Of a DNA stretch of 64,000 nucleotides, positions 10,876-45,918 are shown one piece after another. Made by a program: the position numbers and the translations under genes. Below the pieces are notes generated by a model. That model was not told where the DNA came from. It made no database searches and saw only the letters and a list, made by a program, of their open reading frames with translations. Position 1 is the stretch's first letter. Each line of letters begins with the position of its first letter. Where the stretch lies: the NCBI GenBank assembly GCA_022340745.1, contig JAJDNL010000133.1:5315-69314 (forward strand). Direction: 5' to 3'. The DNA is from Deltaproteobacteria bacterium (GTDB lineage: Bacteria; Desulfobacterota; Syntrophobacteria; BM002).

Positions 10876-11040
10876 TTCAACATTGAAAACCTGGTCCTTA
10901 GAGCCAGGTCAGAGTTCAATGGCTTTGCCAGCAAAAGAGGTTTCAGTTTTCAGTTTTTTGTTTTTCTTTCCTGACACCTGACACCCGACACCTGACACCC
11001 TGAGTTTGGGTCCTTTGAGTCCGGATTCTTTACTAACTGC
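10876..11040 (+). repeat. REP-like dispersed element, family TTCGAAAACCTGGTCC..CCTGACACCTGACACC..CCGGATTCTTTACT (copy 1)
   Basis: ttcaacattgaaaacctggtccttagagccaggtcagagttcaatggctttgccagcaaaagaggtttcagt...cctgacacctgacacccgacacctgacaccctgag...ccggattctttact. It contains a CTGGTCC/GGACCAG-type hairpin. Seven copies in this window, all in the same orientation. Confidence 0.7.
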
Positions 11041-12731: not shown

Positions 12732-13340
12732 CTAATAACCAGATTCTTTGCCGGTCATACTTTCTATTTCAACCTTTATGATAACGGTGCTTTTCACGGC
12801 AGGCTCATCATATTCAAAAGATCTGCCTGCATAATGCTGCATAATTGCATCGAGTCCTTTTTTCTTCTCTTGGAGATTGTCAACCAGTGAACCCTTACCA
12901 AATGCTATAACACTGCGGTATTTCATGCCCCACTTGCACGGATTGTCGTCCTGAATGACCTTTTGGTCCAGGTCGAATTGAAGCTCCCTGCAGCAAGCTG
13001 CAAGGAATCTTCGACTGTAAGGAATTAGTCTATTTTATAAAGTTCGCTCGCTAACCCCGCAGCCCCGGCGACGGGATTTCCGCTCCGCTCCAACAAGCTG
13101 CGGGGAATGCGCTCGCTGGTTCAGTTCAACACAGACGTTGGGATTGTGTTGGAGTATCTCTAATTTCAAACCGTCGCCTGCGGAGTGAAAATAAAGCGTA
13201 TTATTGCTGTAAGCAAAACAGAGAGGAACAACATAGGGTTGATCATTTCTAGACATACCCAGACGACAAACCAATGAGTTGCCGATAACCTCTTCAATCA
13301 AGGCAGTATCGGCAATTTCTCTATCTTTCCTACGCATCAA
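12732..13340 (-). pseudogene. pyridoxamine 5'-phosphate oxidase-family (PNPOx-like FMN-binding) gene interrupted by an in-frame 141-nt repeat element carrying a TAA stop
   Basis: ORFs 13035..13340 (MMRRKDREIADTALIEEV..NPNVCVELNQ) and 12732..12926 (..KYRSVIAFGKGSLVDN..) are in the same frame. They are separated by 47 codons, including TAA at 13037..13035, that exactly span the repeat element. Deleting 12975..13115 gives ..NPNVCVELNQ|DLDQKVIQDDNPCKWGMKYRSVIAFGKG.., a normal PNPOx core. Confidence 0.6.
12975..13118 (+). mobile_element. ~140 bp two-hairpin intergenic element, copy A (MITE-like or structured RNA; inserted in PNPOx gene)
   Basis: gaattgaagct-CCCTGCAGcaagCTGCAAGG-gaatcttcga..gttcgctcgctaa-CCCCGCAGC..GCTGCGGGG-aatgcgctcgctg. 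Copies at 16228..16373 and 24223..24350 share the flanks. The hairpin stems differ between copies with compensatory changes. Confidence 0.65.
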
Positions 13341-14700: not shown

Positions 14701-15801
14701 CTAAGGTTTTAGCAGAATTTTTCCGAATAACCCTTTTCCGGTGAGCATCTTTGTGTGGGCTTCTGCTGCCTCTTCAAAGGGATACACTGAGTCAATTGCA
14801 GCCTTTATCTTCCCCTGAGACATCCAGTAGAATCCCTGTTCTACCTCTGCCTTTGTGCCCTGACTTGAGCCAAGGATGTTGGTTCCTTTGAAGAAGATAT
14901 GTCTTAGGTCTGCTTTGGCATCGTAGCCTGTGGTGGCGCCGCATTGAACCAGGGTTCCGCCATATTTGAGCAGAGTAAGCTGCTTGTTGAAGTGGGTCTC
15001 GCCGATGTGATCAAAAGATACATCGATTCCCGGAGATACCCCAGTCTTTTGAGAGATTTCCTTGGACAAACCCCGGACTTCCTTGTGCCAGTCATCCTTC
15101 CTATGATCCACGGCGTAATCGGCACCAAGTTCGAGACATCTGTCTAGTTTATCAGGACTCGCTGTTGCAATCACCGTACAGTTGTAGAGTTTCGCAATCT
15201 GGATTCCAAAGCTACCAACACCGGAACCCCCTCCCATTACCAGTACGGTTTGTCCTGGTTTAATCTTGGCCCTGCCTACAAGCATGTGCCAGGAAGTGAG
15301 CAGGGTCATTGAGGCTGCCGCCGCCTCATCGAAGCTGACGTTATCTGGAATCTTGATGACGTTTACTTCCGGAAGATGGGTAATCTCCGAAAACCCACCC
15401 CACAGGGGGCCGGTCTCGAAACCCCAGATCGTCCGCTTATTACAGTCATACTCACGACCGTCAGTACAGGCAGAACAAACTCGGCATGACATATTAGAGT
15501 GGGATACAACTCTGTCCCCAACGTTGATTCTGGCTACATCCTCCCCCACGGCGATTACTTCACCGGCTGCATCAGAGCCTGAAATGTGGGGCAACGGGAC
15601 CGGTATGGGAGTTCCTCTCATTCCCCAAATATCGTTGTAATTCAATGCAGCTGCTTTGACTTGAAAAACTACCTCGTTTGGTTTTGGTTTTGGATCGTCT
15701 ACATCTTTTACCTGCAAGATGCGCTTAAAATCATCATCCGGAGCATACTCTTCGTAAACCACAGCTTTCATCTGTGCTTCTCCTTTCTTTGTTTCATTCA
15801 A
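14701..15801 (-). CDS. zinc-binding MDR-superfamily dehydrogenase / enoyl reductase (crotonyl-CoA reductase-like)
   Basis: 366 aa. ..AAALNYNDIWGMRG.. and GGGSGVGS nucleotide-binding motif. Probable true start MKAVVYEEY (15771). Confidence 0.65.
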   Translation of the reverse strand: MNETKKGEAQMKAVVYEEYAPDDDFKRILQVKDVDDPKPKPNEVVFQVKAAALNYNDIWGMRGTPIPVPLPHISGSDAAGEVIAVGEDVARINVGDRVVSHSNMSCRVCSACTDGREYDCNKRTIWGFETGPLWGGFSEITHLPEVNVIKIPDNVSFDEAAAASMTLLTSWHMLVGRAKIKPGQTVLVMGGGSGVGSFGIQIAKLYNCTVIATASPDKLDRCLELGADYAVDHRKDDWHKEVRGLSKEISQKTGVSPGIDVSFDHIGETHFNKQLTLLKYGGTLVQCGATTGYDAKADLRHIFFKGTNILGSSQGTKAEVEQGFYWMSQGKIKAAIDSVYPFEEAAEAHTKMLTGKGLFGKILLKP

Positions 15802-15872
15802 AATCAGAAATTTATTCCTCAGGGCCAGTCCACGATCCCGCCCTGCGGGGGTCAGAGTTCAATGGCCTCGAG
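15797..15872 (+). repeat. REP-like element (copy 2, partial) overlapping start codon of the MDR gene
   Basis: ttcattcaaaatcagaaatttattcctcagggccagtccacgatcccgccctgcgggggtcagagttcaatggc. Confidence 0.55.
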
Positions 15873-16227: not shown

Positions 16228-16373
16228 AATTGAAGCTTTCTGCAGTCCCGCTACAGCGGGACAGGGAATCTTCGAAAGGTAAGGAAGTGATTCCATTTTA
16301 TTGTAGCTCGCTCGCTAACCCCGTCCGCCTCCGGCGGACTACGGGGAATACGCTCGCTGTAGCATTTTCAAAT
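16228..16373 (+). repeat. two-hairpin element copy B, 28 nt upstream of UbiA-family gene
   Basis: aattgaagctttc-TGCAG-TCCCGCTacAGCGGGA-caggg-aatcttcgaaaggtaaggaagtgattccattttattgtagctcgctcgctaa-CCCCGTCCGCCtccGGCGGACtACGGGG-aatacgctcgctgtagcattttcaaa. The ORF track 16230 start is read-through of this element. Confidence 0.65.
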
Positions 16374-16400
16374 ATCCATTCTCAAAGGAGCTCCACTTCG

Positions 16401-17303
16401 ATGAGTAATACCCTGAGAGCGGTGATATTTGGCCCCATGCGTTTACCCTTTCTCATCCTGACTCCGGCATGTGTAATGCTGGGTGCAGCCACCGCAGCTT
16501 GGTCAGGATCTGAACTCAAGCTGTATTATCTTGCTCTTACATTTGCCGGTGCGTTGGCGGCCCACATAAGCGTTAATGCCCTGAATGAGTACGATGATTG
16601 TAAAAGTGGTCTTGATTTCAATACCCAACGCACTCCCTTCAGCGGCGGCAGCGGCACCCTGCCCCAGAGCCCTGACAAGGCCCATGTAGCACTGATTACC
16701 GGTCTCTGCAGCCTGGTTGTCACGGCTATTGTGGGCCTGTACTTTCTCTCTATCCGGGGACTGTGGCTTTTACCCGTGGGCCTTGTCGGCCTGGTGATTA
16801 TAGTTGTCTATACAAAGTGGATTACCAAAAACGCCGTTTTCTGTTTAGTAGCGCCCGGGCTTGGTTTTGGCCCCTTGATGGTAATGGGAACTGACTTCGC
16901 TTTAAGTGGTTCCTATTCGTGGACCTCATTTGTAGCTTCCCTGGTTCCATTTTTCCTAGTGAGTAATTTATTGCTACTCAACCAGTTTCCAGATGTGGAA
17001 GCGGATAGAGGGGTGGGCAGGCACCATTTCCCCATCGCCATCGGCAGAGAGGCCAGTGTAAGATTATACGTGTTATTCCTTGCAGGTGCCTATCTGGCGG
17101 TTATCTTCGGTTATATAAGCGGCTGCCTTCCGCTGGCAGGCTTCTTGGCCCTTGGCTCACTTATCATTGCCGTTCCTACTGTCAAGGGTATCGCCAGGTT
17201 CGCAGAAGATATGGACAGCCTGATACCCTATATGGGCAGGAATGTCGTAGTAATCATTTTGACGCCGGTGTTGCTTGCTATTGGTCTCTTTATTTCGTCT
17301 TAG
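16401..17303 (+). CDS. UbiA-family prenyltransferase (MenA/UbiA-like, menaquinone-type)
   Basis: N..NEYDDCKSGLD Asp-rich motif, about 8 TM helices. SD AAGGAG before ATG 16401. Confidence 0.75.
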   Translation: MSNTLRAVIFGPMRLPFLILTPACVMLGAATAAWSGSELKLYYLALTFAGALAAHISVNALNEYDDCKSGLDFNTQRTPFSGGSGTLPQSPDKAHVALITGLCSLVVTAIVGLYFLSIRGLWLLPVGLVGLVIIVVYTKWITKNAVFCLVAPGLGFGPLMVMGTDFALSGSYSWTSFVASLVPFFLVSNLLLLNQFPDVEADRGVGRHHFPIAIGREASVRLYVLFLAGAYLAVIFGYISGCLPLAGFLALGSLIIAVPTVKGIARFAEDMDSLIPYMGRNVVVIILTPVLLAIGLFISS

Positions 17304-17365
17304 AAAACCTTGTCCTCAGGGCGAGACTAAATCGCATAGAGCATGGCGCATAGAGCATAGCGCAC
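17299..17365 (+). repeat. REP-like element (copy 3, short variant)
   Basis: tcttagaaaaccttgtcctcagggcgagactaaatcgcatagagcatggcgcatagagcatagcgcac. Confidence 0.5.
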
Positions 17366-17427
17366 AAATCCAGGGATTCGTGACATTGAAACTTTTTTGC
17401 TTTGCGCTCTGCGCCAAGCGCTTTGCT

Positions 17428-19126: not shown

Positions 19127-19216
19127 AGTTACTCCCCTTTCTTCAGATGAAATAGTAGGGCCTGCATACTCACCGAGATATCTATGCAAAAATTATCCCA
19201 AAACAAGGTCTACTCA

Positions 19217-19330
19217 ACTTCGAAAACCTGGTCATTGGAGCCAAGTCAAAGCTCCCTGGTTTTGCCGGCAGAAGAGGTTTCAGCTCCTATGTTTCTTTTG
19301 CCTGACACCTGACACCTAAAACCCTGGGAT
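19217..19330 (+). repeat. REP-like element (copy 4)
   Basis: cttcgaaaacctggtcattggagccaagtcaaagctccctggttttgccggcagaagaggtttcagctcctatgtttcttttgcctgacacctgacacctaaaaccctggg. Confidence 0.65.
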
Positions 19331-19390
19331 TTCAGACGGGAGGAGAGGTTCAGCTTGGAAAACCTGGGACAAGGATGCAGGTGTAGCAAT

Positions 19391-19892: not shown

Positions 19893-20160
19893 CAACACGT
19901 CATTCCGGACGAGGCCGCCCAAGGCAGGCGAGATCCGGAATCCACAAATACAGGTTAATAAATGATGCCTGGATTCCCGCCTGCGCGGGAATGACGTGAT
20001 TACATGAGCCCGTCATTCCGGAATTCGCTGCAGGCGGATGTCCGGAATCCAGAAAACCTACAATGACCTCATTTGGTGCCTGGTTCCCCGCCTTCGCGGG
20101 GACGTTGTCTGGATCCCGGCTCGCGTCCCGCTTTGCAGGACTTGGCCGGGATGACGCATT
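19893..20160. repeat. tandem array of five non-identical hairpin units (ATTCCGGA/TCCGGAAT, ATTCCCGC/GCGGGAAT, TTCCCCGC/GCGGGGA, ATCCCGGC/GCCGGGAT)
   Basis: Units are ~45-70 bp. Each is flanked by cctgg..gacg or cgtcattcc.. and carries an 8-9 bp stem; loop length alternates 24/4/18/4/24 nt. Stem sequences covary between units. Not CRISPR, since the units are not identical direct repeats. Confidence 0.6.
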
Positions 20161-20226: not shown

Positions 20227-20733
20227 TCACCGAGATTTATCGTTCTCTTGAAAGGTGATTCCTCTGATGATGCTGTCTTTGGCAACCTTGAAGGTAGAAG
20301 AGAACTCCAGCACCGGTCTTTCAGCTTCATTGTAAACAGTTGCCTGCCCTTGCAGTATTCTTCCTTCTTGTTGCAGGACTTTTGCTCTGGCGGTAACGAC
20401 CCCTTGTTTGACAGGATAAAGAAATTTTGACTCCAGAGCAATTGTGGCAAAGTGAGTTTGAACCGGAGCCAAACTCTTGATGGCCATGACAACCGCGGTG
20501 TCGGCCAGGCTAATCAGAGCACCACCGTGCAAGAGCCCGGCTCCTTGAGCGAGGTCGATAAGAAAAGGCATGGTCAAGGTGGCCCGACCGTCAGAGGCTT
20601 CGACGATCTCCATGTGCAACAATCGCTCAAAGGGCGCACAACTAATCCAGCCGTCCATATCAAATTTATGTGGGCCAGTGTATCGATCCATGGCTACAAT
20701 CCTCTCCTCCGTGGCATCCTGGTTATTCAACAT
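20227..20733 (-). CDS. PaaI-family hotdog-fold thioesterase
   Basis: 168 aa. ..LLHGGALISLADTAVVMA.. is a 4HBT/PaaI signature. Confidence 0.75.
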   Translation of the reverse strand: MLNNQDATEERIVAMDRYTGPHKFDMDGWISCAPFERLLHMEIVEASDGRATLTMPFLIDLAQGAGLLHGGALISLADTAVVMAIKSLAPVQTHFATIALESKFLYPVKQGVVTARAKVLQQEGRILQGQATVYNEAERPVLEFSSTFKVAKDSIIRGITFQENDKSR

Positions 20734-20900
20734 CGAAAATCTGGTCCATAGGACCAGTCCACGATCCCGCCTTGCGGAGATCAGAGTTCAATGACTTTGC
20801 CGGCAGAAGAGGTTTCAGTGTTCTTGTTTTTCTTCCCTGAGACCTGACACCCGACACCTGAAACCCTGAAATTTGGGTCCGGATTTTTTACTCTCCCACT
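20727..20900 (+). repeat. REP-like element (copy 5, full length) overlapping PaaI start codon
   Basis: ttcaacatcgaaaatCTGGTCCatAGGACCAGtccacgatcccgccttgcggagatcagagttcaatgactttgccggcagaagaggtttcagt..ccctgagacctgacacccgacacctgaaaccctgaaatttgggtccggattttttact. Confidence 0.7.
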
Positions 20901-23940: not shown

Positions 23941-24000
23941 TTTCGTCTTGAAAACCTGGTCCTCAGGGCCAGTCCAGAGCACAAAGAGCATAGCGTAAAA
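23941..24000 (+). repeat. REP-like element (copy 6, short)
   Basis: tttcgtcttgaaaacctggtcctcagggccagtccagagcacaaagagcatagcgtaaaa. Confidence 0.55.
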
Positions 24001-24222
24001 ATACAGGGAGCTTTGGCATTGACAGTTTTTCGCTTTGCGCAAAAAATACAAGAGTACTGGAGTGAACCCGAGACTATTGTGCACATTTGGGGGCACGGGG
24101 ACAAGGGGGTATTGAGTCAGGCAAGCAACCTTTTAGGAGAGCTTGAGTAAAGTGATTGTACTCCACAGATCTGCTCGAGACTTGGAAATATGATTGTGTT
24201 GTGGTAGATTCACCCGTTCGCG

Positions 24223-24350
24223 AATTGAAGCTCCCTGCAGCAAGCTGCAGGGAATCTTCGAAATGTAAGGAAGTGGTTCCATTTTGTTGTAGTTCGCTCG
24301 CTAACCCCGCAGCAAGCTACGGGGAATACGCTCGCTAGAGCATTTTCAAA
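24223..24350 (+). repeat. two-hairpin element copy C, 50 nt upstream of cNMP-binding gene
   Basis: aattgaagct-CCCTGCAGcaagCTGCAGGG-aatcttcgaaatgtaaggaagtggttccattttgttgtagttcgctcgctaa-CCCCGcagcaagctaCGGGG-aatacgctcgctagagcattttcaaa. Confidence 0.65.
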
Positions 24351-24400: not shown

Positions 24401-24847
24401 GTGATCCCGATTGACGAACTCAAGAAGTACGAAATCTTGGCTGAACTGGATCCGGCTGAATTGAAATTCCTGTCCGGGATGGCCGAGGTCACCCATGCCC
24501 AGGAGGGTGAGGTGCTGATACAGGCTGGACTTCCGGCTCGCACGCTCTATATCCTCCAAGAAGGAAATCTCATGGTGGCCTTTCCTGATGGTCGCGCTAT
24601 TACATTGCACAAACCCGGTGGGGTGGTGGGTTGGTCGGCACTGGTCAGTCCAACACGTTACACGGCATCGGTTACCTGCCTGACGGACTGTACGCTCATT
24701 ACCTTTCCAGGCAGCGAGCTCTTACGTCTGGTCCAAAGAAACGTGGTGATGGGAACCAAAATCATGCGCAACATTTCCAAGGTGCTCGGCCGCCGGCTCC
24801 CTTTTTTGCAAGAAGAAGACAGGCAAAGACTGAGAGAGAAGAGGTAA
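24401..24847 (+). CDS. cyclic-nucleotide-binding (cNMP/Crp-like effector) domain protein
   Basis: 148 aa. GTG start with SD GGAGAAG. ..GEVLIQAGLPARTLYILQEGNLMV.. beta-barrel cNMP-binding pattern. Confidence 0.65.
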   Translation: MIPIDELKKYEILAELDPAELKFLSGMAEVTHAQEGEVLIQAGLPARTLYILQEGNLMVAFPDGRAITLHKPGGVVGWSALVSPTRYTASVTCLTDCTLITFPGSELLRLVQRNVVMGTKIMRNISKVLGRRLPFLQEEDRQRLREKR

Positions 24848-45616: not shown

Positions 45617-45712
45617 GCAGTTACCTAGACTTTTGTCTTGCCTCCTGCCGGACTTTTCTGTGCACTTCTAACAGAAAACGGATGACAAATGCCAGCATTA
45701 ATTTGTATTCAA

Positions 45713-45860
45713 TTATAGAAAACGAGGTCCTAAGGACCAAGTCAATATTCAGTGGGTTTGCTTGTGAAGATGGCGTACGGCTGAAGGTTTCAGTGCTCAG
45801 TGTTCAGGTTTCAGTTTCTCTGCCGCTTTTTCCTGACACCTGACACCTGACACCTTTCCC
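45713..45860 (+). repeat. REP-like element (copy 7)
   Basis: tagaaaacgaGGTCCtaaGGACCaagtcaatattcagtgggtttgc...ggtttcagt..cctgacacctgacacctgacacc. Confidence 0.6.
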
Positions 45861-45918
45861 TATGCTCTATGCCCAATCTCACATCACACATCAAAACATA
45901 GCTCTTGAGAGGTGACTC

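Follow-up and report, generated by a model that had tools for sequence, protein, structure and literature searches.

A gene-less two-hairpin repeat family of Desulfobacterota is probably a miniature derivative of an IS200/IS605-type insertion sequence

Gene-less derivatives of IS200/IS605 insertion sequences are known as palindrome-associated transposable elements (PATEs). In IS608 of Helicobacter pylori, the left cleavage site CL lies 19 nt 5' of IPL and the right cleavage site CR lies 10 nt 3' of IPR (PMC3201880, PMC3597680), and a guide is located 5' of each hairpin foot, namely GL (AAAG) for CL (TTAC) and GR (GAAT) for CR (TCAA) (PMC3201880). In the pairing of the two, the partner of C-3 is the first guide base and that of T-4 is the second (PMC3201880). 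The left end of IS200/IS605 elements always inserts 3' of the target, and an orientation bias toward the lagging-strand template has been reported (PMC5027513).

Here we describe a family of short two-hairpin repeats, present in three copies in the window (the whole 64-kb stretch of DNA analyzed), which we consider probably to be a gene-less, non-autonomous miniature derivative of an IS200/IS605-family insertion sequence, that is, a PATE. Like IS608 and ISDra2, the family has subterminal hairpins of ~20 nt, on one strand and at both ends, and shows neither real terminal inverted repeats nor a target duplication. In both IS608 and the family, a fixed tetra- or pentanucleotide adjoins the left end (TTAC in IS608; TGAA or TTGAA in the family), the left linker is 19 nt long, 4-nt guides with complementarity to the cleavage sites in a c2-g1/c1-g2 scheme lie 5' of the hairpin feet, and the right cleavage site is TCAA, whereas the right linker measures 10 nt in IS608 and 8 nt in the family. 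Unlike IS608, the family (i) carries neither tnpA nor tnpB, with no parent element found in the sequences searched; (ii) has hairpins that stand on longer, interrupted helices, with loops that host recurrent nested modules; and (iii) commonly occurs in one-hairpin deletion forms. The ends of the family have no sequence similarity to those of IS608.

The first-pass annotation had described three two-hairpin repeats on the plus strand, and all three are present there, essentially where it had placed them. The right edge of copy A had to be moved, as this copy reaches 13124, beyond the figure first given, and is followed by a target pentamer at 13125-13129. A 16-mer from the conserved flanks occurs exactly three times in the window, against 0.31 occurrences expected, and an nhmmer profile search of the 64 kb returned the three known copies and no fourth. 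The copies and their parts are as follows (hairpins are numbered in plus-strand order and carry no strand).

12732 to 13340, minus strand: gene of the pyridoxamine 5'-phosphate oxidase family, interrupted by copy A; its N-terminal part ends at 13125 and its C-terminal part resumes at 12977
12978 to 13124, minus strand (the putative active, or top, strand): copy A, 147 nt, within the Pyridox_ox_2 gene; nhmmer match
12986 to 13005: hairpin 1 of copy A, the right-end hairpin on the top strand, CCCTGCAG-CAAG-CTGCAAGG
13055 to 13105: hairpin 2 of copy A, the left-end hairpin on the top strand, bearing the 31-nt tip module X (13064 to 13094)
13125 to 13129, minus strand: target pentamer of copy A, reading TTGAA, gene sequence that predates the insertion (codons GTT GAA)
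16230 to 16366, minus strand: copy B, 137 nt, in a divergent intergenic region 5' of a UbiA-family gene (ATG at 16401)
16237 to 16268: hairpin 1 of copy B, with tip module Z (16245 to 16262), GTCCCGC-TACA-GCGGGAC
16319 to 16346: hairpin 2 of copy B, with tip module W (16323 to 16339), GTCCGCC-TCC-GGCGGAC
16367 to 16371, minus strand: target pentamer of copy B, again TTGAA
24225 to 24344, minus strand: copy C, 120 nt, canonical form, 5' of a cNMP-binding gene (GTG at 24401)
24233 to 24252: hairpin 1 of copy C, CCCTGCAG-CAAG-CTGCAGGG; AATC lies directly 3' on the plus strand and reads as the candidate guide GATT on the top strand
24305 to 24324: hairpin 2 of copy C, CCCCGCAG-CAAG-CTACGGGG; its loop (24315/24316) is the site of module V in three other datasets
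24345 to 24349, minus strand: target pentamer of copy C, again TTGAA

Copies B and C had been placed a short distance upstream of same-strand genes, and the spacing is right: copy B stops 28-35 nt short of the ATG at 16401, and 50-57 nt separate the end of copy C from the GTG at 24401. The mis-extension of the UbiA open reading frame through copy B, also pointed out earlier, is real, since the ORF list holds 16230..17303, and translation from the ATG at 16401 (with AAGGAG upstream) yields a 300-aa product exactly as called on an ENA contig. Copy B is also present in ENA contig L001, which is 99.3% identical to the window. Near-identical strains, found by exact-protein look-up, all carry copies A, B, and C, and the organism is otherwise represented by metagenome contigs. 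Copies B and C belong to a subfamily shared with the MAGs BM002, bin435, and D0606S20remetaG_Bin_93. We regard their location before the UbiA and cNMP-binding genes as incidental, these being insertion sites at which effects on the genes, if any, are a by-product.

Both hairpins fold in all of the window copies, on either strand, with z-scores of -1.8 to -4.2. The earlier claim that the stems change while pairing is kept holds for the family as a whole; within the window, the stem differences are mostly swapped or inserted tip modules rather than single compensated base changes, namely GTCCCGC..GCGGGAC and GTCCGCC..GGCGGAC in copy B and the 31-nt insert of copy A. In an alignment of 67 distinct canonical copies, hairpin 1 is paired at 94.7% and hairpin 2 at 83%. 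Four pairs of hairpin 1 are doubly changed, in 8-25 sequences each, with CG replaced by UA in 13, 22, and 8 sequences and AU by GC in 22. The covariation score was matched by none of 500 shuffles, slid controls were only 33-51% paired, and RNAalifold independently found hairpin 1 and, for hairpin 2, its outer helix. This outer helix exists in four mutually compensated versions: GCTCGC (the standard), GCTCGCT/AGCGAGC (L019), GGGCGGGC/GCCCGCCC (L102), and GCGCGTC/GACGCGC (Manganitrophus). On these 67 copies and 500 shuffles, the argument from covariation to selection on a folded single strand is sound. The folded strand is most likely single-stranded DNA as seen by a transposase, with the complement of the strand noted earlier as the active one. 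Mismatches of the G.T and A.C kinds number 98 and 75, respectively, and favor neither strand, the comparison being dominated by two fixed positions that point in opposite ways, and co-variation between hairpins 1 and 2 within a copy is weak (21 identical versus 14.5 expected).

To delimit the family, one genome per species was scanned with a 19-base pattern from the inter-hairpin segment, which returned at least 112 stretches; the matches listed are all the same element, except for one chance archaeal match. Among these listed matches, the element occurs in ~50 MAGs labeled Desulfobacterales, Desulfobacteraceae, Desulfobacteria, Syntrophobacteria, or "Deltaproteobacteria", as well as in a Nitrospirae MAG. 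Moreover, Candidatus Manganitrophus (Nitrospirota) has one copy in the plasmid-labeled records CP114557.1 (L118, 6001-6107), CP114554.1, and CP114562.1, and the family therefore crosses phyla. The Manganitrophus copy, whose hairpin 2 has the GCGCGTC/GACGCGC outer helix, sits between a TPR gene and a TMEM165/GDT1 gene. Several genomes hold multiple copies at unrelated loci with shared genome-specific variants, such as the four loci on CAWGLD010000001.1. The element had no match in a phage collection, and we found no description of such an element in the literature on Desulfobacterales repeats.

The standard form of the element has two hairpins and measures ~125 nt. A shorter form of ~90 nt lacks hairpin 2 and one flanking CGCTCGCT repeat, and in another, of ~57 nt, hairpin 1 contributes its left arm and hairpin 2 its right arm to one chimeric hairpin. 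These one-hairpin forms look like deletions between internal direct repeats, and under a single-strand transposition model they should be immobile. About 6 of the at least 112 copies lie in long open frames. Two copies are in frame and free of stops, one at L075 2938-3090 within an 820-aa TPR membrane protein and the other at L050 6513-6632 near the C-terminus of a 587-aa secreted protein, and both may be in-frame insertions that are tolerated.

Read on the minus strand of the window, the element has a constant order: an NTGAA target, a 19-nt left linker ending in CATT, a hairpin, a core of ~45 nt, GATT, a second hairpin, and a right linker of ~8 nt ending in TCAA. At the left end of the top strand (n = 85), the pentamer is TTGAA in 53 copies, ATGAA in 14, CTGAA in 11, and GTGAA in 3, with TGAA in 81 of the 85. 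Of 85 copies, 72 have a left linker of 19 nt; right linkers measure 7-9 nt, and 84 of 87 copies have GATT as the right guide. The two similar hairpins lie near both ends in direct orientation, and the sole inverted terminal match is TTGAA/TTCAA; the flanks of 89 copies showed no real terminal inverted repeats, one half of this pentamer match being target DNA.

The guide rule of IS608 holds for these ends: under the same scheme, with pairing predicted from the letters alone, TGAA/CATT and TCAA/GATT would pair entirely by Watson-Crick matches. The left and right cleavage sites differ only by a G versus a C, and the guides differ complementarily, by a C versus a G. In copies B and C of the window, the left guide is TATT (AATA on the plus strand), which would form a G.T wobble with the target G rather than a G-C pair. 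Both hairpins are extended by longer, interrupted helices, TTGAAG/CTTCGA and CGCTCGC/GCGnnCGC, without a counterpart in the IS608 model; these would compete with guide pairing and count against the IS200/IS605 reading.

In most bacteria, the G-rich strand is the lagging-strand template. The top strand of the element lies on the locally G-rich strand at 62 of 93 loci (p = 0.0017, from a noisy 8-kb local skew), which is the direction of the bias reported for IS200/IS605 elements (PMC5027513). A second, small, independent sample gave 11:8, leaning the same way but not significantly.

Taken as an IS200/IS605 derivative, the family would move as single-stranded DNA by a peel-and-paste route that relies on a Y1 HUH transposase (TnpA) encoded elsewhere in the genome, with the minus strand of the window as the active top strand. 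Cleavage would occur after the NTGAA target, which would be followed by the left linker, whose last four bases, CATT, would be the left guide; the right cleavage site would be TCAA, closing the 8-nt right linker, with GATT as the right guide. Hairpin 2 would then be the left hairpin and hairpin 1 the right one, both bound by the transposase as folded single strands, and the cut sites would be located through base pairing between guides and cleavage sites. Stems that keep pairing while their sequence drifts, alongside conserved unpaired flanks, would follow from the need of such a transposase for folded hairpins and guide pairing. The enzyme, the single-stranded intermediate, and the current activity of the family are parts of this model that we infer.

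The same chemistry, with a Y1 HUH enzyme and a hairpin with a 5' guide, would also serve a REP/REPIN-type repeat kept by a single-copy domesticated RAYT (TnpA-REP), in which case the family would not be a true IS derivative. REP, BIME, and REPIN repeats resemble the family in being short, hairpin-forming, high in copy number, and mostly extragenic, with a guide 5' of the hairpin foot (PMC6006769), and both are probably handled by a Y1 HUH enzyme. The high copy number of the family, its mainly intergenic location, and its lack of a linked transposase are as expected with one distant RAYT gene (PMC6006769), and partial one-hairpin forms exist as well. REPs, however, have a GT[AG]G head, pair in inverted orientation, and lack both a fixed target beside them and a difference between left and right ends, whereas no GT[AG]G or CnGA head lies 5' of the family hairpins, the heads there being CATT and GATT; the hairpins are direct rather than inverted, and both the asymmetry of 19 versus 8 nt and the insertion 3' of a fixed tetranucleotide are IS-like. 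Further, the sole RAYT among the loci, in L086, is flanked by its own, different REPs. We therefore consider a RAYT-maintained repeat unlikely.

Neither tnpA nor tnpB adjoins any copy, and the window and ~1.5 Mb of fetched loci yielded no full-length parent element. A tblastn probe made from a consensus IS200 TnpA, which recovered PDB TnpAs at E-values of 1e-28 to 1e-33, gave no match to the window or to the 0.8 Mb of loci searched first, and one match in another 0.6 Mb, an IS200-type tnpA (L184, 115-475) with an apparent frameshift, which we rejected as a partner on account of this frameshift and of unrelated end hairpins. At L086 3240-4140, a 175-aa RAYT-like gene lies amid several copies of another REP (GTAGGATGGGTTGAGCGCAGCGAAGCCCATC), forming a classical REPtron alongside the two-hairpin family in one genome; the gene too was rejected as a partner, being flanked by its own unrelated REPs. 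Lone half-elements were likewise dismissed as autonomous copies, the 3' halves being one-hairpin deletion forms and the 5' halves decayed remnants or contig ends.

Two readings had been offered by the first-pass annotation, a structured MITE and a cis-regulatory RNA. The former stands in a refined form, as a non-autonomous element of the IS200/IS605 type, whereas the latter falls to the random orientation of the copies relative to genes. In an orientation check proposed beforehand as a possible refutation, the downstream gene was on the same strand in 30 cases and on the opposite strand in 32, and the neighbor configurations were -/- in 20, -/+ in 18, +/+ in 12, and +/- in 12 (both from at least 112 copies, with crude gene calls). 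A functional structured RNA, such as a leader element or a small RNA selected at the RNA level, would account for the covarying stems alongside conserved unpaired segments, and copies B and C do lie 28-57 nt 5' of same-strand genes, with weak promoter-like hexamers farther upstream. Such hexamers, however, occur at chance frequency. The genes flanking family copies are unrelated to one another; a constant sense orientation before a coherent gene set was not seen, one copy (copy A) lying inside a coding sequence and breaking it, and others falling among the open-frame insertions described above. Deletion forms and nested insertions are common, and orthologous intergenic regions of related genomes are without the element. 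A search against Rfam 15 gave no window match at the gathering score, and none for copy C at E ≤ 10. Taken together, an RNA-level function for the family appears very improbable.

Copy A provides the one site whose state before insertion can be reconstructed. The halves of the Pyridox_ox_2 gene on either side of it share one reading frame, which is interrupted by an in-frame stop within the copy, and the split gene is found in an identical state in JGI contig L117. In silico removal of 147 nt (12978-13124) yields a 152-aa protein that matches PF12900 (1.3e-23) and aligns free of gaps across the junction (...NPNVCVE|FDLDQ...) with PDB 2fg9 (E-value of 4.5e-31), 2hti, 2hq9, and 3u0i. Because the rejoined protein aligns gap-free to its homologs, the pre-insertion site reads as GTTGAA^TTCGAC, and because excision restores VCVE|FDLD, copy A would have entered 3' of TTGAA with nothing duplicated save a 2-nt AA ambiguity. 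As judged from this single empty site, reconstructed via protein homology and subject to that 2-nt ambiguity, copy A appears to be without a target-site duplication. Since one pentamer was target gene DNA beforehand, the apparent TTGAA/TTCAA inverted repeat is not element-borne. A direct search of JGI metagenomes for the empty allele of copy A gave 0 matches. In the fetched genomes (L022/L048 and others), orthologous loci with and without the element have intergenic DNA that is 68-70% identical, a divergence too great for a precise empty site to be obtained from them.

The 2-nt AA ambiguity could also be read as a 2-bp duplication, and TTGAA/TTCAA does resemble a 5-bp terminal inverted repeat, as would fit a classical cut-and-paste MITE that has very short terminal repeats, duplicates 2 nt (AA/TT) of its target, and is moved by a DDE transposase. 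One of the pentamers, however, was already in the target gene before the insertion, and the guide/cleavage complementarity and the 19/8-nt geometry would be coincidence. Neither terminal inverted repeats of ≥10 bp, in the flanks of 89 copies, nor a fixed-length duplication, at the one empty site, was found. To our knowledge, no DDE family makes an AA duplication, and we give this reading little credence.

Compensation could, in principle, arise with no selection at all, if intrastrand template switching (quasipalindrome correction) kept the palindromes perfect, in which case the covariation would be uninformative on function. In L002, L019, L023, and L034, hairpin 2 has become a perfect long palindrome, GCTAACCCCG...CGGGGTTAGC, by extension, and the left guide is lost, as such a process would produce. 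It leaves unexplained, however, the conservation of the unpaired guides, the lengths of the linkers, the choice of target, and the orientation bias; as a full account it is highly unlikely, and it can instead be a process contributing beside the main explanation rather than an alternative identity.

Among other known repeats, the Correia elements of Neisseria have 26-bp inverted repeats and a TA duplication, and pneumococcal BOX elements have a boxA-B-C module order. Both are small, intergenic, structured, and modular, with length variants, as is the family, but they are without its guide/target logic. A cyanobacterial origin, hinted at by heptamer repeats, was rejected since HIP1 is not enriched, and readings as an integron attC, a sigma-54 site, or an IHF site were dropped by eye for unmet consensus motifs.

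The hairpins of this probable IS200/IS605 derivative host recurrent loop inserts, which we term X, Y, Z, W, and V, in both hairpins and in many genomes. Module X reads CCCGnnnnCGGGATYTCCGCTnCGCTCCRAC, and module Y reads CCGCGAAGCACTGCCGTCAGGCAGAAC and occurs once outside a hairpin tip (L041, 37-62). Module V is a 27-nt micro-hairpin, GACYTGTCGACGAGCTCARGTCGAGTC (also written GACTTGTCGACGAGCTCAAGTCGAGTC). In the hairpin 2 loop of copy C (24315/24316), V is absent from the window and present in three other datasets (L114, 83-109; L115, 2889-2915; and L226) with flanks that are otherwise identical. A metagenome scan (L120-L239) placed V in at least 120 stretches, with an abundance in sediment metagenomes. 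In 99 distinct contexts, V is followed by GCT in 94 and preceded by CAA, TGA, CGA, or CAG, flanks that equal those of an insertion in the center of (R)AG^CT. At least four kinds of host carry V, among them family-type hairpins (12), other hairpin-like repeats, and V itself (14).

Small dispersed repeats (SDRs) of Nostoc punctiforme, as reportedly described by Elhai et al. in 2008, are 21-31 nt long, form their own hairpin, and lie inside palindromes and their own copies. They are said to occupy several host contexts and to have been described only in a subgroup of cyanobacteria. The tip modules, rather than the whole element, resemble SDRs in size, in having their own hairpin, in nesting in palindromes and in themselves, and in having several hosts. 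Unlike SDRs, they occur in Desulfobacterota, in transposon hairpin loops, and V is apparently centered in (R)AG^CT. We tentatively suggest that the 27-31-nt tip modules may themselves be mobile elements of very small size and may correspond, in Desulfobacterota, to the cyanobacterial SDRs.

The intergenic DNA of this genome is unusually repeat-rich. Other small repeat families occupy 10877-11010, 15796-15864, 17303-17407, 19214-19334, 20725-20876, 23950-24040, and 45710-45886 of the window. A hairpin unit, GAAAACCTGGTCCTYAGRGCCAGKYC, lies directly downstream of the UbiA stop codon (17303) and recurs elsewhere in intergenic DNA, accompanied by units bounded by TTGAA...TTCAA and by the tandem heptamers CCTGACA and GAGCATA/GCGCATA. 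Between the window (19989-20030) and L001 (4909-4978), contigs that are 99.3% identical, a rearranged or indel segment lies beside another repeat unit.

For annotation, these elements cause open reading frames to be mis-extended, as for UbiA, and contigs to break, and they can pass for regulatory RNAs, so that their recognition as transposon relics averts false riboswitch and small-RNA calls in Desulfobacterota. With hundreds of copies in several phyla and many stem variants, the family forms a large natural data set of IS200/IS605-type ends, and its reproduction of the guide/cleavage logic of IS608 with another target (TGAA) can help in understanding single-strand transposases and in re-programming them. 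A further question that it raises is which enzyme sustains so abundant a gene-less family. Independent mobility of the nested tip modules, if real, would place them among the smallest known mobile DNAs, with the transposon hairpins serving as both vehicle and landing pad, and would carry beyond cyanobacteria a phenomenon whose descriptions to date are confined to that group.
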